From an uncultured Clostridium sp. (GTDB lineage Bacteria > Bacillota_I > Bacilli_A > RF39 > UBA660), in the NCBI GenBank assembly GCA_945788325.1, contig CALZLL010000002.1, forward strand, positions 1 through 47,092: DNA of 47,092 nt. Direction: 5' to 3'. Made by a program: the position numbers and the translations under genes. Under the pieces are notes generated by a model, which saw only the letters and a program-made list of their open reading frames with translations, did not search any database and was not told the origin of the DNA. Below, one piece after another: positions 758-38,217 of this stretch; position 1 is the stretch's first letter; each line of letters begins with the position of its first letter.

Positions 758-1774
758 ATGGATGAACTTTTTGATATCGTAGAAGATGAAACACTATCTT
801 TAGATGACGACAACAATAAAGATAGTGAAAATAATAATGAAGAAATAGTAGAAAAGAAAAAAGCTAGTGTATTAGAAAAATATGGAGAAAATCTAAGTAC
901 CAAAGTATATATTACCAATCCTGCTATAGCTAGAGATAATGAAATAGAAAAAACTATCTTAACTATACTTACTCCTGATAAATCTGCTATTTTAGTTGGT
1001 AAAGCTGGTATTGGTAAAACTGCTATAGTTGAAGGAATTGCTTACAAAATACAAAATAATGATATTCCTAACGCAATTAAAGGTTATGACATAATAAAAG
1101 TTAATACATCTCAGTTACTTGGTAAATATACTTCTGATGATGGAACAGAAGAACTTAGAATTAACGTTTTACTAAAAGAAGTTGAAAACGCTTCTAATAC
1201 AATTTTATTCATTGATGAAATTCATACTCTTGTAATCGAATCAAGAAATAGTGGAATAGATTTTGTTAATGCTTTAAAACCCGCCTTATCTCGTGGTGAT
1301 ATTAAAGTAATTGGCGCTACTACACTTGATGAATATAATCAATATTTAATAAGAGATAAAGCTTTTCTAAGACGTTTTGAAAAAATAGACGTTGAAGAAC
1401 CAAATGCTGAAACTACCGTTAAAATACTTATGGGATCTTATCCTAGGATTGAAAAGAAAACTGGTGTAAAGCTAGCATATTCATCATTTGTAATAGAAAA
1501 TATAATGAAGTTTATCGTAAATATGACAAGTGAATATAAAAGAGTATATGAACTTGGTTCAAGATATCCTGATAATGCTTTGGCGTTATTATCTAAAGCA
1601 TTTAGTTATGCTAAGTTCGATAATAGCGAATTCGTTACTTTTAAACATATATATAAAGCTATAATGAATTGTCAAAGTGTTTATTCGGATGTAGTAAAAA
1701 AAGAAGCTGAAGCTTTTAAAGTTGAATTTAAAGACTTTCTTGAAAAAGAAAACGTAGATTTAAATGATTATTAA
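758..1774 (+). CDS. Standalone AAA+ ATPase resembling the D1 module of ClpA/ClpB/ClpC (no Clp N-domain, M-domain or D2)
   Basis: Walker A GKAGIGKT and Walker B ILFIDEIHTL. The segment LKPALSRGDIKVIGATTLDEYNQYLIRDKAFLRRFEKIDVEEP is near-identical in pattern to Clp/Hsp100 D1. The N-terminal 35 aa are acidic. An extended -10 (TGATATAAT, about 708-716) lies upstream. Confidence 0.75.
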   Translation: MDELFDIVEDETLSLDDDNNKDSENNNEEIVEKKKASVLEKYGENLSTKVYITNPAIARDNEIEKTILTILTPDKSAILVGKAGIGKTAIVEGIAYKIQNNDIPNAIKGYDIIKVNTSQLLGKYTSDDGTEELRINVLLKEVENASNTILFIDEIHTLVIESRNSGIDFVNALKPALSRGDIKVIGATTLDEYNQYLIRDKAFLRRFEKIDVEEPNAETTVKILMGSYPRIEKKTGVKLAYSSFVIENIMKFIVNMTSEYKRVYELGSRYPDNALALLSKAFSYAKFDNSEFVTFKHIYKAIMNCQSVYSDVVKKEAEAFKVEFKDFLEKENVDLNDY

Positions 1775-1778
1775 AAAA

Positions 1779-1812
1779 AGGCATTGTTTCTAATGAAATA
1801 ATGTCTTTTTAT
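1779..1812. terminator. Hairpin flanked by A-run and T-run between the convergent AAA+ and murE genes
   Basis: aaaaaGGCATTgtttctaatgaaatAATGTCttttt. The stem tolerates one G-U pair. A T-run follows on the plus strand and an A-run precedes it, so it can act in both directions. Confidence 0.4.
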
Positions 1813-3130
1813 ATGAAATAATATCATTTATTACCTCTACATCTGAAAAATGCAACTTTTTATCTCCTATTATTTGATAATCTTCATGTCCTTTACCTAA
1901 AACCATTAGTATCATATTATTATCCAATAATTCTATTCCCCTTTTAATAGCATCATATCTATCATAAATTACCTCATATTTACCACTTGCACCTTTTAAA
2001 ATATCTTTCATTATTTCTTGTTCATTTTCTTTTCTTGGATTATCATTAGTAAATATAATATAAGAAGAATATTTACAAGTTATTTTTGCCATTATTGGTC
2101 TTTTTGTTTTATCCCGGTTACCACCACAACCAACGATTGTTATTATCCCATTATTCTTTATCTTTTTAACCGTTTTTAATACTTTTTTAACCGCGTCAGG
2201 AGTATGGGCATAATCAACAAATATTACGTTATTTTTATATTTTATTTTTTGCATTCTACCTGGTGGCTCACTTAGTAAATATAATTTATCTTTAATACAA
2301 TTTACGTTATATCCTAACTTTTTAATTATGTAATATGCATATAAAAAATTATATACGTTAAACGTGCCAACTAAGGGAATATTAAAACATTTATTTATAT
2401 CATCTTTTATAATAATTTTAGTACCATTTAAATCATTAATTACCAAATTTATTTTTATATCTTTACCGATTATAAAGTTATTATTATCATTATTTATAAA
2501 TCTTTTATAACGTTTACCCTTTTTATTTAAAATACATATTTTATTATTTTTAGTCATGTGAATTATCTTTTTTTTACTTTTTATATAATCCCCCATAGTA
2601 AGATGATAATCTAAATGATCCTGAGTTATATTAGTAACTGCTATGGCATCAAATAATAATCCATGAACCCTGTCTTGTTTTAAAGCGTGAGAAGATACTT
2701 CCATAACAACTACTTTACAATTCTTATCTTTAGCATCCATTATTAAATTATATAAAATATCAATCGATGGTGTTGTGTTATCAAGTGAAATAACATTATC
2801 ATCTAAATAAAAACCAATAGTACCAATATAGGCTGTTTTAACACCAATCATGTTAAGTATTTGATATATTAAATAACAAGTTGTTGTCTTACCATTAGTT
2901 CCGGTAATTCCTATTAATTTTATATCTTTTATTTTTTCTTCATAATACTCTTTAATATAATCATAAATAGATTTAACTTGTTTTGTTTCTATATCAAACT
3001 CATCATTTGTTTCAGTAATGATTAAAGAAGCTTTATTATCTATTGCATTAGATACATACTTTTTATTTTTATCATTAACTAAAAATATATCTCCTTTCTT
3101 AATTTTATTAGAATCAATCCATAAACGCAT
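1790..3130 (-). CDS. murE: UDP-N-acetylmuramoyl-tripeptide synthetase (Mur ligase, MurE-type)
   Basis: GITGTNGKTTT P-loop, DYAHTPDA, GGNRDKTKRP and a GKGHEDYQIIG C-terminal motif. The N-terminus DSNKIKKGDIFLV resembles the MurE DSRkvkpGdlFvA pattern. Confidence 0.85.
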   Translation of the reverse strand: MRLWIDSNKIKKGDIFLVNDKNKKYVSNAIDNKASLIITETNDEFDIETKQVKSIYDYIKEYYEEKIKDIKLIGITGTNGKTTTCYLIYQILNMIGVKTAYIGTIGFYLDDNVISLDNTTPSIDILYNLIMDAKDKNCKVVVMEVSSHALKQDRVHGLLFDAIAVTNITQDHLDYHLTMGDYIKSKKKIIHMTKNNKICILNKKGKRYKRFINNDNNNFIIGKDIKINLVINDLNGTKIIIKDDINKCFNIPLVGTFNVYNFLYAYYIIKKLGYNVNCIKDKLYLLSEPPGRMQKIKYKNNVIFVDYAHTPDAVKKVLKTVKKIKNNGIITIVGCGGNRDKTKRPIMAKITCKYSSYIIFTNDNPRKENEQEIMKDILKGASGKYEVIYDRYDAIKRGIELLDNNMILMVLGKGHEDYQIIGDKKLHFSDVEVINDIISYKKTLFH

Positions 3131-3182
3131 TTTATCACCTTCTATATTTATTTATGATAAATATCTAAAAAGGCAACAAAAA

Positions 3183-3205
3183 AGATAAATAATTATTATT
3201 TATCT
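3183..3205 (-). terminator. AT-rich hairpin plus T-run immediately after the retron RT stop
   Basis: AGATAAATAA-tta-TTATTTATCT is a 10-bp perfect stem. On the minus strand it is followed by TTTTTTGTTGCCTTTTT. It separates the RT from murE. Confidence 0.45.
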
Positions 3206-3216
3206 CGTGTAAATAT

Positions 3217-4155
3217 TTATATTTTTTTTATTTGGTTTTTATATTTGATAAACTCCACATTATCTTTTTCTATTTGTAAAACAAAATTTATCTTTCCCTG
3301 TAATTCCCTTAAATATAATTCTTTATCTTTTGCTCTTATTCTTTTTAAATGACTATTTATACCATATTTTTTTATATAATACATTTCTTGTCTTATTTTT
3401 CTTTTATAACTTTTTCTTACGTTTGTTTTTCTATTAACCACAATACCAGTTACTTGTTGTCTAGTTGATTGTGTTACTACTTTTATTTTTTTCTTATTTA
3501 ATCTAAAACCATTTTTATACAATAATTTATTAACCAAACTAATAATTTCCTTTATATTGAAATCTCCAGAAAAAGTCATATCATCAGAATATCTAGTATA
3601 ACTAATATCCTTACTTTTACAAAAGGATCCCACAATTTCATCAAAATTTCTTAAACATAGGTTTGATATAAATCCACTAGTAGGTGCTCCTTGTGGCAAA
3701 TGATTATTATACACACATAAATTAGTAAGCAATATACCTAATTTCTTAGGATATAACGTTTCATTAAAACAAGTTTTATATACCATGTTGAAATTAACGT
3801 TATCAAAGAAGTTTTCTATATCAAGTTTTAAGATTATCTTTTTATTAATATGGGGCTTTGCATTATCTTTAATTGAACTATTTTTTAAATAGGCGCAAGC
3901 ATGATTAGAAATAATTTTTTCTTCTAAAACATTTTTAAGTATTTTTCTTTGTATGCTTTTTAAATTCTTACTAGGCGCATTTAAATATCTTAAACCACCA
4001 TTTTTTTTATGAATAATTATCTCTTCATAATTAGCATCTATGTCATTACTAATGCCATATAATATTTTATTTATCATTCTTATATTAGTAGTATTAACCA
4101 AATTAAAAGATGATAATAGTTCATTATATTTATCATCAGTTAAATATTTCCACAT
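3217..4155 (-). CDS. Retron-type reverse transcriptase (the ORF track extends to a TTG at 4170; ATG at 4155 preferred)
   Basis: Retron-diagnostic motifs line up with Ec86 RT: NAKPHINKKIILKLDIENFF (NAxxH...D..FF), LPQGAPTS, YTRYSDDMTFS (YxDD) and RQQVTGIVVN (the VTG motif). It is only about 312 aa, with no maturase, endonuclease or other fused domain. RBS GGGAG lies 8 nt before the ATG at 4155. Confidence 0.9.
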   Translation of the reverse strand: MWKYLTDDKYNELLSSFNLVNTTNIRMINKILYGISNDIDANYEEIIIHKKNGGLRYLNAPSKNLKSIQRKILKNVLEEKIISNHACAYLKNSSIKDNAKPHINKKIILKLDIENFFDNVNFNMVYKTCFNETLYPKKLGILLTNLCVYNNHLPQGAPTSGFISNLCLRNFDEIVGSFCKSKDISYTRYSDDMTFSGDFNIKEIISLVNKLLYKNGFRLNKKKIKVVTQSTRQQVTGIVVNRKTNVRKSYKRKIRQEMYYIKKYGINSHLKRIRAKDKELYLRELQGKINFVLQIEKDNVEFIKYKNQIKKI

Positions 4156-4171
4156 ATTATCATCTCCCAAT

Positions 4172-4330
4172 AGCAGGTACTATAAATATACTTAGTAAGT
4201 GAAATGTAACTGTTAATACGTGAAGCGTATAATATTACATTGAACGATTAAGTACAATAGATAATTTAGAGTTTCTTTTTTTAGCGACTCGCTAAAACGA
4301 TTTTTTATTAAAAATCAAACGCTACCTGCT
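4172..4330 (-). ncRNA. Retron msr-msd non-coding RNA
   Basis: 8-bp inverted repeats AGCAGGTA (4172-4179) and TACCTGCT (4323-4330) bound the element (a1/a2). On the minus strand the 5' repeat is followed by GCG, a candidate branching G. Two msr hairpins follow: GATTTTT-aata-AAAAATC and TTTTAGCG-agt-CGCTAAAA. A long interrupted msd hairpin comes next (TACTTA/TAAGTA, AATGTAA/TTACATT, ATACG-cttca-CGTAT). The element ends 16 nt before the RT start. Confidence 0.75.
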
Positions 4331-4337
4331 TAAATAT

Positions 4338-4345
4338 ATTATACA
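4338..4345 (-). promoter_or_regulatory. -10 element (TG-TATAAT) placed to start transcription at the msr 5' repeat
   Basis: The minus strand reads ATGTATAATATATTTAAGCAGGTAGCG, with TATAAT 7-8 nt upstream of the a2 repeat. The -35 is weak (TTTTAC at 17 nt). Confidence 0.4.
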
Positions 4346-4367
4346 TTTTTTTATTCAAAAGTAAAAT

Positions 4368-5543
4368 TTATTTTGATCTTACATTAATATCATCTATACA
4401 TTCATCGTACCTTAATACATGTTCTACATAATCAGGATCACCTGGGTAACTTGAATTTCTATAATCAAGCCATCCTAAATCATTAGATTTTAATACTTCA
4501 TCTTTAGTTTTACCAGTAGCATAACAATAAGAATTAATAATCTTATTAACACTACCAGGCCCCATATTATAGGTTTGGATAGCCGCTATTTTATTACCTT
4601 GCATTTGATTTAAATAATTTTGATAAATAGCACAACCCACTTTTATATTAAAATTAATATCTCTTAATTTATCTAAGGTTATATGAATAGTTTCATAACT
4701 TTCAGTTTCATAGTTATAAACTTTAATATCATTTCCATTCCATACGTCAACTTGCACTTGCATAAGTCCAATTGCACCACCAGAATCAACTTCATTTGAA
4801 TGTACTCCTCTTTCTTGGGTAGCTATTGCAAGCATAATAGATGGATCAAGGCCATACATATTAGCGTATTTTTCTATAATATCATAGTATAAATCTTTAG
4901 TTTTTTCAGCTTTAGTAGTATCCGTTTCATCCTTTATGCCAAGCATATTATACATGGTTGTCTGTTCTTTTTTAACGTCTAAGTTTTGGGTTTTGATATC
5001 AGTTTCTTCTTCATCTTTTTTTATTTCTTTTTTAATATATTCATTTTCTAATGTATCTACATAGTCTTTTTCTAAATCTTCTTTATTATCATCTACATAA
5101 ATAGCATTATCATAAGATGGTTTAACTGGTGTAATTATTGTTTTTACATCTTTATTATTAGCCTTAAATGCTGCAAAGCTAGCTACTGTAGAAATTGCTA
5201 TAACACCTGCTAAAACTTTAGCTCTCCATTTAGCTTCTTTATCTAATTTATATTTCTTTAATTTATCAAATATAAAATCAAATCTACTATCCCCTTGAAA
5301 ATAATAATAATCTTTTAAGGTGATTTTTAATTCTCCTACAAAGCACTCTAAATTATCACCATCAACCCATATATTATGAACTTTTGCCCTATTAAATTCA
5401 TTAAGTAATCTATTTAAATCCTTTTTTGAAACAATGCTATATTTTAAAAGGTTTTTATTATTTAAAACACTATCTAAACTAGCCTCTCCTTCTATAAAAG
5501 TAGCACTAGGTCCATCTATATTTCTTATTACAAGTTCACTCAT
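4368..5543 (-). CDS. Membrane-anchored lytic transglycosylase (SLT domain) with an unknown ~110-aa cytoplasmic N-domain
   Basis: One TM helix (VLAGVIAISTVASFAAFKA) is followed by an acidic, K/E-rich linker. The C-terminal SLT motifs are AIATQERG (catalytic Glu), GAIGLMQV and QTYNMGPG. RBS GGTGA. The gene ends 37 nt before the retron ncRNA, with no intervening hairpin. Confidence 0.75.
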   Translation of the reverse strand: MSELVIRNIDGPSATFIEGEASLDSVLNNKNLLKYSIVSKKDLNRLLNEFNRAKVHNIWVDGDNLECFVGELKITLKDYYYFQGDSRFDFIFDKLKKYKLDKEAKWRAKVLAGVIAISTVASFAAFKANNKDVKTIITPVKPSYDNAIYVDDNKEDLEKDYVDTLENEYIKKEIKKDEEETDIKTQNLDVKKEQTTMYNMLGIKDETDTTKAEKTKDLYYDIIEKYANMYGLDPSIMLAIATQERGVHSNEVDSGGAIGLMQVQVDVWNGNDIKVYNYETESYETIHITLDKLRDINFNIKVGCAIYQNYLNQMQGNKIAAIQTYNMGPGSVNKIINSYCYATGKTKDEVLKSNDLGWLDYRNSSYPGDPDYVEHVLRYDECIDDINVRSK

Positions 5544-5752: not shown

Positions 5753-6238
5753 TCATGCATTTTTTTCTAATAATTTAAAGTTACAACATCTAGATTTTAT
5801 TTTTTTATTTAGTCTACCATTTATATAATCATTATATAATTTTTTTGATTTCCTATATAACTTTTCATCATTTCGTATAAGCCAATAAATTTGTTCCTTC
5901 AAAAGTTTATTATATTTATAACCAAAAACATCGTTAATTTTATTAAACTCAATCAATTTATAGTTTGGTTCTAAAACAGGTATCATATTATTAAAATTAA
6001 CCACACCTAATTCACCATCATCTAATTTTAAAAAATCAACCATGTTACGCATTATTTTATGTTTTTCTTTAGGGCTCGATAATGGTGCAAAATACTTGAT
6101 GGTATCTATTTCAAATAAAACACCAATAAAAGGCCTATTTTATTTCTTAGAAAAATTATAAGGAACCCTCTTATCAAATTCTCTTAAATAATCACAATAT
6201 TTACTATCAATAATAACTAATTTTAATTTTGTATTCAT
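5753..6238 (-). pseudogene. toxN: ToxN/AbiQ-family type III toxin (endoribonuclease) interrupted by an in-frame TAA at codon 33
   Basis: My translation from ATG 6238 (RBS AAAGAGGTG) reads MNTKLKLVIIDSKYCDYLREFDKRVPYNFSKK*NRPFIGVLFEIDTIKYFAPLSSPKEKHKIMRNMVDF... and continues in the same frame into the 99-aa track ORF. Three motifs match ToxN/AbiQ: FIGV..EI...Y.APLSSPK.KH, GVVNFNNMIPV and C-terminal CCNFKLLEK. The stop lies at 6140-6142. Confidence 0.8.
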
Positions 6239-6284
6239 TATAACACCTCTTTCTTTTTCAATACATTTGTTCGTTATATATAGT

Positions 6285-6321
6285 AAAATAAAAAGCTAGC
6301 ATAAATTTAATTACTGCTAGC
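6285..6321 (-). terminator. Intrinsic terminator between the antitoxin repeats and toxN
   Basis: The minus strand reads GCTAGCA-gtaattaaattta-TGCTAGC followed by TTTTTATTTT. This is the same position as the attenuating terminator in ToxIN loci. Confidence 0.65.
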
Positions 6322-6345
6322 AACTTTTTTAAGTCCCAATTTAAT

Positions 6346-6431
6346 GGCTGGGTTCACCGCTTTATTAAGTTCCTATTATGGCCGGAATCGCCGCTTTATT
6401 AAGTTCCTATTATGGCCGGAATCGCCGCTTT
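6346..6431 (-). ncRNA. toxI: ToxI/antiQ-like antitoxin RNA: about 2.5 tandem copies of a 34-nt repeat
   Basis: Copy 1 is 6346-6379 (ggctgggttcaccgctttattaagttcctattat). Copy 2 is 6380-6413 (ggccggaatcgccgctttattaagttcctattat). A partial copy spans 6414-6431. A degenerate partial copy (aagtcccaatttaat) lies just before copy 1. The repeats are directly adjacent with no spacers, upstream of and co-oriented with toxN. Confidence 0.75.
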
Positions 6432-8384: not shown

Positions 8385-8615
8385 AATAAAAAGCCCATCC
8401 TAATTAAAGGATGAACTAACTTGTCCACGGTACCACCTTTGTTCTAGATATATAATCTGGCTCTCATACTTTTAACGCAAGTTAACGTTTTAACCTATTA
8501 GATTAAAAAGCTCTACTGACCATTTATATAAATACTTTTCTATGTATGCTTTCACCTTACCATACTCTCTTTTAATAGTTTTTCTTTATACTCTTCAGCA
8601 TCAAAGCCTTTAAAA
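8385..8615 (-). promoter_or_regulatory. T-box riboswitch leader of metG (Met specifier)
   Basis: The minus strand carries AGAGAGTATGG and the distal-loop GGTGAAAGC. The candidate specifier is AAATGG (ATG at 8523-8521). The T-box sequence is CAAAGGTGGTACCGTGG (8428-8446). The terminator is AGTTCATCC-tttaatta-GGATGGGCT followed by TTTTTATTTT. Confidence 0.7.
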
Positions 8616-8668: not shown

Positions 8669-9826
8669 TTATCTTAACTTTATTTTTGATAAAAACGATT
8701 CTTCTGTTGCTTTTACTATTTCTTTATCATCAGTATAAATAAAAGCACCACTATTTAATAATTTATTAACGTTTTTCTCATCTAACAATCCATAAGAATA
8801 ATACATATATTCTTCTTCTATATAACTTTTTAAATTATTAATATCAACATTTCTCCAATTAGAATCTACGTAATTTAAAAGACCTATTTTTATTTTATTA
8901 ATTTCAGTATTTTTACTCAATGCATTTTTTTGACCATCTAACCAATTATATAAATTATTATCTTTATCTTTATAAACAAAACTTTCTAAAACAAATAAAT
9001 CTCCATAGGTATCTTTATATTCTTTTAACATTAAGTAATATTTCTTCCAATTATTATTTTTAATCATATCTAAATTATATACTTTATCTTTTCTTATTAC
9101 TACTTCCCATACCATTTCTATTTCGTTTAATAATTCTATTTGTTTTTGGTTTAGCTTACTATTATTCTTTCCTTTATAGGCTAGTCTTTGTTTACTAATC
9201 CAACTTCCTAACTTTACTTTGTTTCCATCTTTACCCTTACAAACATAATTAGCAGGTATAAGTAGATTACCATGTTCTTCATAGTACTTTTTGGCTAATT
9301 CGTAATTTTTTAACCAATTATTTGGTATTATTTCTTTGTTATTTTTAACTTTCCATACCATTTCTATTTCGTTTAATAAATCCATTTGTTTTTGATTTAA
9401 CTTATTATTATTCTTTCCTTTATAGGCTTGCCTTTGGGTATTAATCCAATTACCTAATTTTACTTCGTTTCCTTCTTCATCTTTCCAAACATAAGTAGTA
9501 GGTATAAGTAAATTGCCATGTTCTTCATAATACTTTTTCGCTAATTCATAATTTTTAAGCCAGTTATTTGGTATTAATTCTTCATTATTTTTAACTTCCC
9601 ATACCATTTCTATTTCGTTTAATAATTCTATTTGTTTTTGACTTAATTTACTACTTCCATATCCTTTATAGGCTTGCCTTTGTCCACTTATCCAAATTCC
9701 TAATTTTACTTTGTTTCCATCTTCGTCCTTACAAACATAGTTTTGGGGTATAAGTAAATTGCCATATTCTTCATAGTACTTTTTGGCTAATTCATAATTT
9801 TTTAACCATCTTTCTTCGTTAGTCAT
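8669..9826 (-). CDS. Protein built from helicase-associated (HA) domain repeats
   Basis: Three near-identical 82-aa units (WLKNYELAKKYYEEHGNLLIP..YV.KD..GN.VKLG.WI..QRQAYKG....KL.QKQ..LLNEIEMVWE) plus one degenerate fourth unit. This pattern matches the HA domain. No helicase core is present. Confidence 0.65.
   Translation of the reverse strand: MTNEERWLKNYELAKKYYEEYGNLLIPQNYVCKDEDGNKVKLGIWISGQRQAYKGYGSSKLSQKQIELLNEIEMVWEVKNNEELIPNNWLKNYELAKKYYEEHGNLLIPTTYVWKDEEGNEVKLGNWINTQRQAYKGKNNNKLNQKQMDLLNEIEMVWKVKNNKEIIPNNWLKNYELAKKYYEEHGNLLIPANYVCKGKDGNKVKLGSWISKQRLAYKGKNNSKLNQKQIELLNEIEMVWEVVIRKDKVYNLDMIKNNNWKKYYLMLKEYKDTYGDLFVLESFVYKDKDNNLYNWLDGQKNALSKNTEINKIKIGLLNYVDSNWRNVDINNLKSYIEEEYMYYSYGLLDEKNVNKLLNSGAFIYTDDKEIVKATEESFLSKIKLR
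9086..9826 (-). repeat. Intragenic tandem DNA repeat, 3 x 246 nt at roughly 90 percent identity by eye
   Basis: For example, ccataccatttctatttcgtttaataa recurs near 9108, 9354 and 9600. The period equals the 82-aa protein repeat. Confidence 0.7.
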
Positions 9827-20375: not shown

Positions 20376-21482
20376 TTATTTTACAACCTTTTCTCCATAC
20401 AAACCACCGTCTGTGTATTCATCAAAGTGAATATCCGCCCAACTTCCTTTAGTCACTATTATTTTTGTTTTATCTTTTTTTCCATAGTCTGAATCACTAT
20501 AATAAAATGCGTTAAAAGCAATATTTGTTACACTTTCAGGAATTGTTACGCTTTTAAGTGTAGGAATATCCGCAAAAGCCGCTTCCCCAATAGTAGTTAA
20601 TGAATTAGGTAATTTAACATCTTTTAATGATGTATGGCTAAATGCTTCTGCTTCAATAACTTTAAGATTATTATTCCATTTAACCTCACTTAATTTTATT
20701 GCTTCATAAAAAGCATTTTCATCTATCTTCTCAACATTATCTGGAATTTTAATTTTACTTAATGATTCACAGTAATAACAAAAATCATGTGGAATTTCTT
20801 TGATATTTTTAGGTAAGTTTATTGTTTTTAATTTATAGCATTGAGAGAAAAAATCAGCTGGTATTACAAAATCTGGATTTTCAAAAACTATACTTTCTAA
20901 AATATAATTACTGAAATCATCATTATTCCAAAAAATATCATAATCTGCTGTTTCATAATATGCAGGAATAATAAGATTTTTTTGCCTTAATCCTTTTTCT
21001 GTTAATGCATAAATTGTTGTATCATAACTTTCAAAATAAATGCTATTACTACCATTATTAGAAGTGCCAATACCACTACTATTATTTGTACTTGAATTAC
21101 GTAATAATATTATTAAGACTATAATAGTAACTAAAACTCCAACTATTACAAGTGTTAACTTGAGATTCATTTTATTTTTAACATTATCTATTGAAGAATT
21201 ACTTCCTTGTATATTATCATTAGTGTTAATTACTATATCACTATAATTATCACTAGCATCTGATTGTGAATTCATTTGATTAACATTATTTGATTGTTGC
21301 TGTAAATTTTGTTCATAATTACTATTAATATTTAAATTTTGATTTTTTTCTATGTTGGTATTAAAGCTTTCACTTGAGAAAAAGTTTCCATTTTGTTGAT
21401 TTGTATTAAATTCATTATTAGTACTATTTATACCATTCTGATTCAAGTTATTATAATCATTATCATTAAAATTATTATTCAT
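20376..21482 (-). CDS. BspA-type leucine-rich-repeat (LRR_5-like) membrane protein with an N/Q-rich N-terminus
   Basis: About 100 aa of Asn/Gln-rich low complexity, then one TM helix (LTLVIVGVLVTIIVLIILL). Repeats of the form IP.NV..I...AF..C..L..I.LP follow. Confidence 0.65.
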   Translation of the reverse strand: MNNNFNDNDYNNLNQNGINSTNNEFNTNQQNGNFFSSESFNTNIEKNQNLNINSNYEQNLQQQSNNVNQMNSQSDASDNYSDIVINTNDNIQGSNSSIDNVKNKMNLKLTLVIVGVLVTIIVLIILLRNSSTNNSSGIGTSNNGSNSIYFESYDTTIYALTEKGLRQKNLIIPAYYETADYDIFWNNDDFSNYILESIVFENPDFVIPADFFSQCYKLKTINLPKNIKEIPHDFCYYCESLSKIKIPDNVEKIDENAFYEAIKLSEVKWNNNLKVIEAEAFSHTSLKDVKLPNSLTTIGEAAFADIPTLKSVTIPESVTNIAFNAFYYSDSDYGKKDKTKIIVTKGSWADIHFDEYTDGGLYGEKVVK

Positions 21483-28331: not shown

Positions 28332-28793
28332 TTAACGTTGTTTTGTCAAATCATATTTTAGTTTTTTAACACAATCTTCAAAGTCTCCTTCTACTATGTT
28401 AACAGATTCTGCTATCATTAAATTTATTGGTAATCCAAAATCTTCTACGTTATAACCTTCATCATCTTTTTTTCCTATTTTACTTATCATATCTAAATCA
28501 CTATCTATGTACCCATATAATATTTTATTTTTAGCATATCCATATCCTAATTCAAAAGCGGTACCATCATCCATTGTTTGTCCTCTAAAATTATTTAAGT
28601 TAGCGACTAATATATCACTTTCGTTTATAAGACTTATATTACCATTAAATATATCTTTAGAACTTGATAACTTATTATCTAATGGATATAGTCCACAAAA
28701 ACCATATATGGAACATATTTTTTTATATTCTTCACCAATTTTTAATGCATCATCACTAAATACATCATATCCTGCAATATATATTTTTTTCAT
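28332..28793 (-). CDS. Nucleoside 2-deoxyribosyltransferase family protein
   Basis: KIYIAGYDVF at the N-terminus, and DDGTAFELGYGYAKNK (the catalytic Glu region). The 153-aa size is typical of salvage NDT enzymes. Confidence 0.7.
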   Translation of the reverse strand: MKKIYIAGYDVFSDDALKIGEEYKKICSIYGFCGLYPLDNKLSSSKDIFNGNISLINESDILVANLNNFRGQTMDDGTAFELGYGYAKNKILYGYIDSDLDMISKIGKKDDEGYNVEDFGLPINLMIAESVNIVEGDFEDCVKKLKYDLTKQR

Positions 28794-32742: not shown

Positions 32743-33615
32743 TTAATTATTTTCAATATAATCAATTACTTCATTAATAGTTTCATCAAATTTATTTATG
32801 TTTATGTCAAACCACTTGACATTCATTTGATGTTTAAACCAAGTATATTGTCTTTTAGCGTAATTACGTGATTTTTTCTTTATTAAGTCTTTAGCTTCTT
32901 CTAACGTTATTTTTTTATCAAAATAAGGATATAATTCCTTGTATGCTATAGCAGTATTAATAGCTTTTCCAGTTATTTTATTATCATAAAAATATTTAGC
33001 TTCATCTAATAATCCGTTATCTATCATTTCATCTACCCTATTATTTATGGCATCATATAATTCTTCTCTAGGTCTTGTAAGACCTATTATTTTAGCATCA
33101 TATAACATCTTATCAGAAATAACTTTATCATTTACATCATGATTATTTAAAAAGCTTTCTAATCTTTGTCTATTATTAACATGAATCTTAGTATCATTAT
33201 CTATTTTCTTTACCATGCTATATAATTCATCATTAGAATAATTAGAGAAATCTTTTTTTTCACTATTTTCTTTAAATTCATAATTATAAAGTAATGCTTT
33301 TAAATATAAACCTGTACCACCAACAATAACAACGTTTTTATTTTCTTTTAATAATTTATTAAGTACGTTTCTTGCATCTTTTTGATAATCATATACTGAA
33401 TAATCTTCATCAACATTTTTAATATCTATCATATGATGCTTAATACCATCTTTTTCTTCTTCTGTTACCTTAGCCGTTCCAATGTCCATTTTTCTATATA
33501 TTTGCATACTATCACATGATATTATCTCTGCGTTATATTTTTTAGCTAGCTCAATAGACATCTTGGTTTTGCCAACTGCCGTTGGTCCTACTACTGCCAT
33601 TATCACCAATATCAC
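32743..33615 (-). CDS. miaA: tRNA dimethylallyltransferase MiaA
   Basis: VVGPTAVGKT P-loop, SCDSMQIYRKMDIGTAK, and a C-terminal YAKRQ.TWF motif. Confidence 0.92.
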   Translation of the reverse strand: MILVIMAVVGPTAVGKTKMSIELAKKYNAEIISCDSMQIYRKMDIGTAKVTEEEKDGIKHHMIDIKNVDEDYSVYDYQKDARNVLNKLLKENKNVVIVGGTGLYLKALLYNYEFKENSEKKDFSNYSNDELYSMVKKIDNDTKIHVNNRQRLESFLNNHDVNDKVISDKMLYDAKIIGLTRPREELYDAINNRVDEMIDNGLLDEAKYFYDNKITGKAINTAIAYKELYPYFDKKITLEEAKDLIKKKSRNYAKRQYTWFKHQMNVKWFDININKFDETINEVIDYIENN

Positions 33616-34235
33616 ATCCTTATTTCTTTTTTTATTACATCATCATCTTGATAACTATCAAAATAATCTTTCATTATTTTTTTATATGCTTCATCTAATA
33701 ATTTTAAATTGTATTTTAATATATCATCTAAACTTATATCATCTACTACTTGATAAAAATCACAATCAACTATTTTAAAGTCCCCGTTATAATAAATTAT
33801 GTTATCCGGTTTTATATCATTTATTTTTATCTTATTATAAGATAATGTTTGTATTTTATTTAATATAATATTATAAGCTTTTTCTATATCTTCTTCATTA
33901 ATATTTATTTTTCCTAACTTATATTTTAATAGGATATTTTTTAAATTAGGTCCATTATAATATGGCATGGTATACCCAGTAAATTTATCATTTACATAAA
34001 CTAAATTTATAGGTAAAGAAACGCCATCAATTCTTATTTTTGATAATTCGTCTAATCTTTTTTCTATATCTATTTTTTTTAAAATTTCTTTATCCATATC
34101 AAGATATTTTAAAGCTTTATTAAAAAATAAATAACAGCTACCAAAATTACCTTTATGTCTTGAATTAGTAATTGGCTTTAAATTCTTAATATCATAAGGA
34201 CTAATTTCTATTTTCATATTCTTTTCTCCAAACAT
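33612..34235 (-). CDS. Minimal protein-kinase-fold protein (207 aa)
   Basis: A Gly-rich loop-like GNFGSCYLF. The catalytic-loop-like NDIKPDNIIY fits D.KP.N, and IVDCDF sits where DFG would be. It overlaps the miaA start by 4 nt. Confidence 0.5.
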   Translation of the reverse strand: MFGEKNMKIEISPYDIKNLKPITNSRHKGNFGSCYLFFNKALKYLDMDKEILKKIDIEKRLDELSKIRIDGVSLPINLVYVNDKFTGYTMPYYNGPNLKNILLKYKLGKININEEDIEKAYNIILNKIQTLSYNKIKINDIKPDNIIYYNGDFKIVDCDFYQVVDDISLDDILKYNLKLLDEAYKKIMKDYFDSYQDDDVIKKEIRM

Positions 34236-37014: not shown

Positions 37015-38217
37015 CTAATAAAGATAACTTATATCAACGTTACCATTTATTCCGGGAACCCTTCCTTTAGAAGTATATTGCCACATTGAATAATAATCAT
37101 CATATTTACAAGTTTTATTATATTCCGCTACCCAATCAACGTATTTTTTAGAAATACTACCTAGCCTATTCATGGCATACCATCTTCCAGAGTATACTTT
37201 AACTTTATATTTATAATTCGTATAATTACTAACACTATTTATATAATGTTGAATAATTTTATCATACATATTTTTAGTAATACTATTTGAATTACTACTT
37301 TTTGTACTCCAACTTTCTATGTCATAATAAATACCTAAACTAGGATGTATATCATATTTACTAATCATTTTGTTAGTAAAATCCGCTTCTTTTTTTGCAC
37401 CATTTAAAGTACTTGCATAACTAAATAAATATATACCATAAGGTATGTTTAATCGTTTTAACTCACTTAAATTTCTTTCAAACTTTTTATCTAAAGTTTC
37501 ATAATATCCCAATCTTAATATTACCCCATAGCAATCACTTTCTTTTGAAAAAGTATCCCAATTGATATCTCGTTGATAATAACTTACATCAACTACCTTA
37601 ATATTATTAGTTCCTAAATATTTACCAACGGGTGAAAAATAATGATTTACACCATCGATACTTTTTATACCAGTTATTTTACTATCATTTTCATAATAGT
37701 AAGTATTACCATCTTCATCATAAAAACCATTTTTTATATTAGTATAATTTTCTTTTACTTCTTCAATAATTTCTTGTTTTTCTTCGTCATTACTTATTTG
37801 TTCAGATGAACTATTATTTAAATTATCATCTTTATTTTCATCTATTTCTAAAATATCTTCTACTTTATTTTCATCAATAACTAATTCTTCTTTTTCATCT
37901 GTTATATCTTCTTCATTTATAACATCATTAATAATCATATTATTTTCTTCTTTACTAATGCTTTTTTCACTTTCAAACATAATTTCATCTTCAACTAAAT
38001 TATTACTAGTTTTTTTATAACCATCATAATAACTAATTGTGTAATCCTGATTAATTTTTGGAACATTTGCTACATAAAATTCATATTTTTTTGTTTCTAT
38101 ATTTTCTTGCTTACTTTCTTGTCTTAAATTCTTACTATTTTTTTCATTACTTAATATATTTTTATTATTTATGAATAAGAATATAAAACTAATAATTATT
38201 ATTACTACTTTCTTCAT
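37015..38217 (-). CDS. Secreted GH25-family muramidase with an acidic linker and one cell-wall-binding-type repeat
   Basis: Signal or TM segment at the N-terminus. NGFYDEDGNTYYYENDSKITG is a CW-binding-like repeat. GH25 motifs are VVDVSYYQRDINW, GVILRLGY, GIYLFSY and YYDIE. RBS AAGGAGG. Confidence 0.78.
   Translation of the reverse strand: MKKVVIIIISFIFLFINNKNILSNEKNSKNLRQESKQENIETKKYEFYVANVPKINQDYTISYYDGYKKTSNNLVEDEIMFESEKSISKEENNMIINDVINEEDITDEKEELVIDENKVEDILEIDENKDDNLNNSSSEQISNDEEKQEIIEEVKENYTNIKNGFYDEDGNTYYYENDSKITGIKSIDGVNHYFSPVGKYLGTNNIKVVDVSYYQRDINWDTFSKESDCYGVILRLGYYETLDKKFERNLSELKRLNIPYGIYLFSYASTLNGAKKEADFTNKMISKYDIHPSLGIYYDIESWSTKSSNSNSITKNMYDKIIQHYINSVSNYTNYKYKVKVYSGRWYAMNRLGSISKKYVDWVAEYNKTCKYDDYYSMWQYTSKGRVPGINGNVDISYLY

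Follow-up and report, generated by a model that had tools for sequence, protein, structure and literature searches.

The window (the whole stretch of 47,092 nucleotides from an uncultured Clostridium sp. that was analyzed here) carries a retron, comprising a non-coding RNA (ncRNA, msr-msd) and a reverse transcriptase (RT), that lies directly downstream of the gene for a membrane-anchored lytic transglycosylase, referred to as SLT in what follows. We find that retron and SLT are, very probably, two unrelated units that adjoin one another only because both occupy a variable slot between the genes metG and murE. A sequence-only reading had put forward the SLT protein as a possible effector of the retron, in what would have been a new architecture. 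This proposal does not hold up: as in the conditions that the reading had itself named as refuting it, the neighbors of the RT differ from genome to genome and SLT genes mostly occur without a retron; in addition, the retron has a promoter of its own. In order of transcription the minus strand carries metG, a decayed ToxIN-like module, SLT, the ncRNA, the RT and murE (Table 1). The SLT gene had been described as the only co-oriented neighbor; it is indeed co-oriented and adjoining, but murE, the toxN pseudogene and metG share its orientation.

Species-representative genomes were scanned for homologues of the RT, giving 70 loci with RTs that are 31-69% identical to that of the window, and a second, SLT-centered scan gave 47 species-level loci in which an RT was sought within 3 kb; locus comparisons used 10-kb flanks. 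Counted from either side, SLT and RT do not co-occur in conserved order. The SLT protein is found (tblastn) in 2 of the 70 RT loci, L002 and L016, the latter belonging to the small number of species-level genomes in which SLT directly precedes the retron, and the 68 loci without it include close relatives with the order metG-RT-murE. Conversely, an RT is present at 6 of the 47 SLT loci and absent from 41, including those in which SLT stands directly between metG and murE. Sixteen loci retain a metG-linked or SLT-murE block: SLT leads straight into murE in 8 of them, the RT is placed between SLT and murE in 4, SLT and RT are split by another gene in 2, and the last 2 are without a nearby RT or murE.

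The individual arrangements, many of them on metagenome contigs, are informative. The order metG-SLT-RT-murE is found in L071 and L072-74 and metG-SLT-RT in L090, whose contig stops before murE; in L089, metG-toxN-SLT-RT leads into other genes. Near-complete contigs of the family represent each state: ena:ERZ28751349 contig_17631 (1.07 Mb) carries both genes, ena:ERZ4560426 NODE_2 (801 kb) the retron only and jgi Ga0252379_000001 (371 kb) SLT only. The retron occupies the slot without SLT, as metG-RT-murE, in L001 and L075-77, and SLT occupies it without the retron, as metG-SLT-murE, in L078, L081-84, L092, L097, L100 and L102-105. A single lineage shows all three states, with the retron only in L075-77, SLT only in L078 and L081-82, and both in L091, so that in one and the same background either gene persists in the absence of the other. 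Identities among L075, L078 and L081 amount to 95-98% for murE and 97-99% for metG, and the DNA flanking the slot in L075 and L081 is 92-94% identical on both sides with sharp junctions, between which L075 (4747-5936) has a retron of 1190 bp and L081 (4932-6106) an SLT gene of 1175 bp. The right-hand junction falls within the last RT codons in L075 and at the SLT stop in L081, and is followed in both by a common terminator, AAAGAATAA..TAATT.TATTCTTTTTTTG. Given that L091 has both genes, L075 and L081 have probably each lost one of them by a precise deletion, independently of one another.

The SLT protein of the window is closest (57-61% identical) to SLTs of retron-less loci, and it is 47-50% identical to those that adjoin a retron. 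For its N-terminal domain (N-domain), whose co-occurrence with the RT the sequence-only reading had proposed to check by itself, the nearest match (52% identical) likewise comes from retron-less genomes, where the domain is conserved. Pairwise identities of SLT and RT are uncorrelated (rho 0.05, a weak test with 5 loci), unlike real retron systems in which RT and effector co-evolve (Mestre et al. 2020, PMC7736814). Distances between RTs correlate with those between the flanking murE (rho 0.66) and metG (rho 0.58) genes.

The predicted promoter of the retron provides a further line of evidence. The spacer of 37 nt (4367-4331) that separates the SLT stop from a1, the first segment of the ncRNA, is free of hairpins, as the sequence-only reading had stated, and it holds the retron promoter, which a consensus scan scores at 10 of 12 matches and from which transcription would start at ~4331-4330, the first base of a1. 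Read-through from SLT into the retron had been considered possible; the spacer indeed has no terminator, but the conserved promoter that it holds is dedicated to the retron. Anchoring RT-homologue loci on the conserved msr hairpin, which could be done for 29 of them, places a TAnAAT, often as TGnTATAAT, with its end 6-10 nt before a1 in 28, the remaining locus (L040) having TATACT at the -10 position. This box is kept regardless of which gene stands upstream, and at several of the loci it is preceded by a clear terminator of the upstream gene.

At the other end of the retron an AT-rich hairpin with a T-run does lie between RT and murE, as previously described, though it is weak; it is likely to be a weak intrinsic terminator and was not called in the terminator scan, having fewer than 3 G-C pairs. 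It forms the right-hand edge of the slot in all relatives, following the RT in L075 and SLT in L081. In comparison with L001, which has the retron and no SLT, DNA homology breaks off where metG ends (6657) and restarts at 4345, by the -10 box, and in comparison with L081, which has SLT and no retron, homology spans the SLT gene (5430-4404) and restarts at 3205. These edges delimit a cassette of ~1.14 kb (~4345-3206). Judged from its sequence, the retron appears to be an autonomous cassette with its own promoter, ncRNA, RT and terminator.

The RT has no fused domain and no adjacent effector, in agreement with the sequence-only reading: RVT_1 (3.8e-24) spans residues 53-244, RT_Ec107-like spans residues 15-316 of 317, and no effector models match beside it. 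This numbering refers to the longest open reading frame (ORF), 3217-4170 on the minus strand, with a TTG start. The true start is the ATG at 4155, which is preceded by a GGGAG ribosome-binding site and agrees with homologues that all begin MW(K/Q)(Y/H)L; an exact-sequence look-up of the 317-residue TTG-start product returned no record. Top matches in PADLOC, NCBIfam and PDB are retron RTs, the best PDB entry being Ec86 (9e-33). The highest-scoring PADLOC model is RT_Ec107-like (1.3e-120, 400 bits), with RT_III-A as runner-up (4.9e-104, 346 bits), and the best NCBIfam model, retron_St85_RT, reaches 219 bits relative to a cut-off of 235, so that no named NCBI retron family fits. VTG in region Y is a motif of retron RTs. 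The translation contains QQVTG together with NAKPH (NAXXH, in region X) and YSDD (YXDD), as in the retron clade, NAXXH and YXDD being criteria by which retron RTs are recognized (PMC6868368).

Homologues of the RT are numerous and spread over many species. Ratios of nonsynonymous to synonymous substitution rates (dN/dS) are 0.10-0.27 for 15 homologue pairs with amino acid identities of 60-97%, even where dS is saturated between lineages. Disrupted copies are found in metagenome-assembled genomes (MAGs), with a frameshift in L016, a frameshift and a stop in L011, a stop in L042 and, in L068, a remnant of 87 residues between metG and murE; these could be either real decay or assembly errors.

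The ncRNA folds with a minimum free energy of -37.4 kcal/mol (z -3.47), and 0 of 200 shuffled sequences fold as well. Two msr hairpins follow a1, the second being UUUUAGCGAGUCGCUAAAA. RNAalifold, applied to 20 loci, retained the stem formed by a1 and a2, the basal part of the msd stem and the UAGCGAGUCGCUA hairpin, with double changes that keep pairing in 16 of the 20 consensus pairs; the a1/a2 stem loses none of its 8 pairs, and 7 of these show double changes. At least 90% of the aligned sequences share the TAG that follows a1, and its G, G4322, is a candidate branch point. Rfam, searched with gathering as well as with permissive thresholds, yielded no matching family.

The retron thus far described fits the stand-alone Ec107-like class on every feature tested, its placement on that branch being suggested by hidden Markov model (HMM) scores and not by a tree with Ec107. 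Members of this branch have been described by Mestre et al. 2020 (PMC7736814) as stand-alone or orphan (msr-msd)-RT cassettes; the branch, within clade 2, includes Retron-Eco5 (Ec107) and comprises 59 RTs, to which no protein is specifically linked. That the retron of the window might be an orphan had been named as an alternative by the sequence-only reading, and it fits the evidence, no associated protein having emerged from the 70 RT loci.

Several points weigh against the picture of an effector-less retron that is separate from SLT. SLT placed right upstream of the retron is common in this one bacterial family (the window, L016, L071-74, L089-91, L093 and L098), and with no terminator between SLT and msr in the window read-through transcripts may exist. 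A lineage-restricted, facultative interaction is conceivable, and retron-only genomes may hold an SLT paralogue elsewhere, or a trans effector, MAGs being incomplete. It is nevertheless hardly credible that the cytoplasmic N-domain of SLT has been locally recruited as a partner in those lineages that have both genes. As for the retron itself, clade 2 is found mostly in Gammaproteobacteria (Mestre et al. 2020, PMC7736814) and the host here belongs to Bacillota, which bears on a placement made by HMM scores, and production of multicopy single-stranded DNA (msDNA) is something that we infer.

No other gene nearby takes the place of SLT as a partner. When the ORFs that flank the RT at the 70 loci are clustered, no family besides the RT is found in more than 11 loci and the recurrent ones reflect housekeeping synteny, with neighbors such as ychF, an abgT-like transporter gene, parAB, pyrG, zupT, lon and lepA. 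Of 90 non-redundant immediate neighbors submitted to PADLOC, the only ones to match retron effectors adjoin the two most divergent RTs: PRTase_III-A in L069, whose RT is 34% identical, and NDT_II-A in L067, whose RT is 31% identical. These matches serve as positive controls, establishing that the test can see effectors where they are present; among the immediate neighbors of RT homologues that are at least 40% identical no retron effector model was matched. A small conserved effector 3' of the RT was considered and rejected, as the co-oriented ORFs of 140-200 residues that are common there are unrelated to one another (a cyclophilin-like lipoprotein, DUF1292, GNATs, a methyltransferase, a MerR-like protein, an ankyrin and an acylphosphatase). 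A trans effector inside the window was likewise rejected, PADLOC giving nothing relevant on ten ORFs, nine of them uncharacterized, as was the nucleoside 2-deoxyribosyltransferase at 28332-28793 (minus strand, 153 residues, PF05014, 4.5e-29), which has no match to the NDT_II-A model of type II retrons and whose stand-alone gene probably serves nucleoside salvage. The AAA gene at the far side of murE is also conserved in retron-less loci (82-91% identical in relatives, whether the retron is present or not) and was rejected as well.

The surroundings of the RT homologues suggest that the retron repeatedly settles in intergenic spacers between co-oriented housekeeping genes, or so it seems. A parA-parB-mscS-abgT-like-[retron]-ychF block, with the RT at ~6000, recurs in L014, L017, L018, L021, L025, L037, L043, L044 and L065; these represent another lineage of gut Bacilli and an origin-proximal type of neighborhood. 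In a third lineage the order is pyrG-[retron]-zupT, and lepA and lon contexts are also observed.

The SLT protein had been described as consisting of an N-domain, a transmembrane (TM) helix, a charged linker and an SLT domain with its catalytic Glu in ATQERG, and Pfam, an alignment and an AlphaFold2 (AF2) model all agree with this description. In the alignment, which includes 18 homologues, Glu244 of ATQE[RSK]G is invariant and GLMQ and YNMG are conserved. The structure of the N-domain, to which the sequence-only reading had drawn attention, is predicted by AF2 as a small beta-rich domain (residues 1-99) with modest confidence (predicted local distance difference test, pLDDT, ~70-86). It is followed by a long helix (86-126) that includes the hydrophobic stretch VLAGVIAISTVASFAAF, and residues 100-195, with the TM segment and charged linker, are of low confidence. 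For the C-terminal domain pLDDT exceeds 85 and Foldseek, run on the whole model with results dominated by the SLT domain, finds MltE, Slt70 and MltC with a probability of 1.00; sequence matches in PDB (MltC, Slt70, EmtA) are weak. The protein is therefore best modeled as a bitopic family-1 lytic transglycosylase whose N-domain is cytoplasmic and whose SLT domain lies outside the cell. Relative to E. coli MltE/EmtA, Slt70 and MltC, with which it shares the SLT Pfam domain, the invariant catalytic Glu and the best fold matches, it differs in being of a Gram-positive, bitopic type, with a long charged linker and, on the cytoplasmic side, an N-domain of ~100 residues unassigned to a fold family.

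The N-domain is conserved across the SLT family and gave no match in a Pfam search. More distant homologues of SLT are preceded by a DUF1292 gene and lie in unrelated housekeeping surroundings; the N-domain as a fused DUF1292 was considered and rejected (hhalign probability 0.2%, and nothing in Pfam). With 126 word-seeded matches, mostly in MAGs of gut Bacilli, the family of SLT is a small one. No mobility genes are found in the metG-murE block around SLT, and an origin in a conjugative element, which had been raised for the gene, is at odds with this conserved chromosomal block. Since it adjoins murE in such a block, SLT would be a resident housekeeping gene of wall remodeling and not part of the retron.

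The interval between metG and SLT holds a type III toxin-antitoxin module, ToxIN/AbiQ-like and now decayed. It resembles ToxIN/AbiQ in having an ORF of the ToxN/AbiQ family after short tandem antitoxin-like repeats and a terminator hairpin, and differs in having only 2.2 perfect repeat copies and one degenerate copy and a premature stop in the toxin; the repeats are thus present and the toxin frame is interrupted at codon 33, leaving no intact ToxN. The C-terminal ORF of 99 residues still matches ToxN_toxin of Pfam (2e-21) and AbiQ of PADLOC (4.7e-16), and an intact ToxN of 172 residues occupies the same place in L089 (2012-2530). In genomes that lack toxN, L081 (4813-4892) keeps a degenerate repeat and the hairpin and L075 (4669-4719) the hairpin only. 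The module is independent of the retron, and toxN was rejected as a retron effector: it has its own antitoxin repeats, the SLT gene stands in between, it carries a nonsense mutation and it is absent from most retron loci.

Table 1. Features of the metG-murE region of the window and disrupted RT genes of related loci.
Feature	Position	Strand	Details
Clp-D1-like AAA ATPase gene	758-1774	+	338 aa, single-domain, divergent after murE
murE (Mur ligase)	1790-3130	-	Pfam Mur_ligase_M and Mur_ligase_C, DNPR motif
AT-rich hairpin and T-run after RT	~3210-3176	-	-8 kcal/mol, z -1.8
Retron RT	3217-4155	-	312 aa, ATG start at 4155, Pfam RVT_1, PADLOC RT_Ec107-like
Retron ncRNA (msr-msd)	4172-4330	-	159 nt, directly upstream of RT; fold and covariation
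a2, TACCTGCT	4179-4172	-	16 nt before RT ATG
msd hairpin	~4256-4188	-	69 nt, enclosed by a1/a2
a1, AGCAGGTA	4330-4323	-	pairs with a2
Retron promoter, predicted	4338-4365	-	-35 TTTACT (4365-4360), 16-nt spacer, -10 TATAAT (4343-4338)
SLT gene	4368-5543	-	391 aa; Pfam SLT 1.2e-13, residues 222-338
SLT protein parts	residues		N-domain 1-~100; TM ~110-126; low-complexity charged linker; SLT domain ~205-385
Decayed type III toxin-antitoxin (ToxIN/AbiQ-like)	5753-6431	-	between metG and SLT
toxN frame	6238-5753	-	161 codons, in-frame TAA at codon 33
Hairpin and T-run of ToxIN-like module	~6318-6290	-	from sequence
ToxI-like repeats	6431-6357	-	TRF: period 34, 2.2 copies, 100% match
metG	8225-6648	-	T-box leader in front
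Disrupted RT genes	L016 6001-6928; L011 6001-6932; L042 4485-5330; L068 1165-1425

The right flank of the slot, murE, is a housekeeping gene downstream of the retron and is syntenic in relatives with and without it. The AAA protein encoded beyond it matches ClpA and ClpB models at 1e-50, far under their cut-offs. The T-box leader upstream of metG (Rfam RF00230, 99.3 bits) spans 8404-8613 on the minus strand, with a terminator hairpin at 8417-8392. Further upstream, 8669-9826 (minus strand) encodes a protein of 385 residues that consists nearly entirely of four 'helicase associated' repeats (HA, PF03457) without a helicase domain, and L071 holds a shorter HA-repeat protein at the equivalent position. 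Elsewhere in the window, all on the minus strand, are a kinase-like ORF of 207 residues between mutL and miaA (33612-34235) with weak, sub-cut-off Pkinase and weak PD-T4-6 matches, a secreted GH25 muramidase (37015-38217) and a BspA-type leucine-rich-repeat protein (20376-21482). G+C content of the window is ~25% and GC skew is negative throughout. The nearest relatives are uncultured gut MAGs labeled Mollicutes, Bacilli, 'Candidatus Aphodocola' or 'Clostridium sp. CAG:594', and the host family is one of uncultured gut Bacilli with small genomes of roughly 1 Mb.

Among known systems Ec107 (Retron-Eco5), whose cassette is ~1.3 kb in length, is the closest in kind. It shares with the retron of the window the best RT model, a minimal composition of msr-msd and an RT of ~315 residues with no fused domain or partner, insertion in intergenic DNA among housekeeping genes without mobility genes, and a non-canonical box, YSDD here and YCDD there. 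It differs in that the present host is a low-GC (~25%) gut Bacillota and that the predicted msDNA is shorter, ~70-85 nt as compared with 107. Ec107 replaces an intergenic sequence of 34 bp and shows no mobility features, and its expression is raised by starvation (Simon et al. 2019, PMC6868368). A 2026 metagenome survey lists Ec107_like among the most often detected ncRNA models. Type III-A retrons, which combine an RT with a phosphoribosyltransferase-like (PRTase-like) effector and, in some cases, a winged-helix protein, are related insofar as RT_III-A is the second-best model and the Ec107 branch adjoins PRTase-linked RTs, but no gene for a PRTase or winged-helix-turn-helix protein lies beside the RT of the window or beside any homologue that is at least 40% identical. 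The likeness to tripartite retrons of the Ec48 type, in which the effector has two TM helices, is superficial, a membrane-protein gene standing beside msr-msd-RT in both; the Ec48-type effector co-occurs and co-evolves with its RT, whereas the membrane protein of the window is a cell-wall enzyme found mostly without retrons.

By analogy with the retron family, the RT would bind the folded ncRNA, use the 2'-OH of G4322, next to a1, as its primer, and reverse-transcribe the msd hairpin, giving a branched msDNA of roughly 70-85 nt. For its part in the cell, Mestre et al. 2020 (PMC7736814) list as options for the Ec107 branch that a PRTase-type partner was lost, that an effector acts in trans, or that the mechanism is a different one; our literature searches (orphan retrons, Eco5, retron with lytic transglycosylase) found only this paper and Simon et al. 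2019 to be relevant. Because presence of the retron is patchy, a decayed abortive-infection toxin-antitoxin lies beside it, and the RT is under purifying selection with occasional decay, we put at about an even chance an accessory role in phage-related sensing, with the output provided by a partner or host factor elsewhere or by the msDNA itself. A gene that is under purifying selection yet only patchily present, in a slot that also hosts an abortive-infection toxin-antitoxin, follows the pattern typical of accessory defense genes, which suggests a defense role and does not prove it. That Ec107-like retrons are complete functional units with no need of a toxin effector of their own, the output coming from the msDNA-RT complex itself or from some core factor of the host, is a more doubtful proposition.

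Other explanations fare less well than an accessory role. A domesticated, non-defense element, for example one of starvation or stationary phase that is inherited vertically as part of core physiology, is unlikely: the position among housekeeping genes with lineage-specific synteny and the way in which RT distances track those of murE and metG would suit it, Mestre et al. raise the option and Ec107 responds to starvation, but the retron comes and goes between near-identical backgrounds, is a pseudogene in several lineages, as fits an accessory gene, and shares its variable slot with a toxin-antitoxin module. Still harder to sustain is a functionless relic whose PRTase-type effector has been lost, the cassette now persisting or decaying. 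The next-best RT_III-A models, the node that the Ec107 branch shares with PRTase-linked RTs (Mestre et al. 2020, PMC7736814), the disrupted RTs of L016, L011, L042 and L068 and the loss of the retron from close relatives could all be read in this manner; the low dN/dS values, the compensatory changes in the ncRNA, the intact promoter, start codon context and NAXXH, YXDD and VTG motifs and the size and spread of the family are difficult to reconcile with it. As to the SLT protein being the effector, or a sensor-anchored lysin, that is co-transcribed with msr-msd-RT and causes abortive infection by wall cleavage, the co-orientation and 37 nt spacing without a terminator, the recurrence of the order SLT-retron in several lineages of the family and a conserved cytoplasmic N-domain without known function do little to offset the separate distributions of the two genes, the promoter of the retron, and the lack of a PADLOC match for the SLT protein or of a link between retrons and lytic transglycosylase effectors in the literature search, and we consider it most improbable.

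A murein-cleaving retron effector would, if true, have been a new defense architecture; the evidence says otherwise. What the locus provides is a well-bounded, effector-less Ec107-like retron in low-GC gut bacteria. Mestre et al. 2020 (PMC7736814) did not settle whether orphan cassettes are functional, and the conserved promoter, the covarying ncRNA and the purifying selection on the RT add weight to their being so. The three-state slot, found in tiny genomes, is a natural comparison set for finding a trans partner by phylogenetic profiling.

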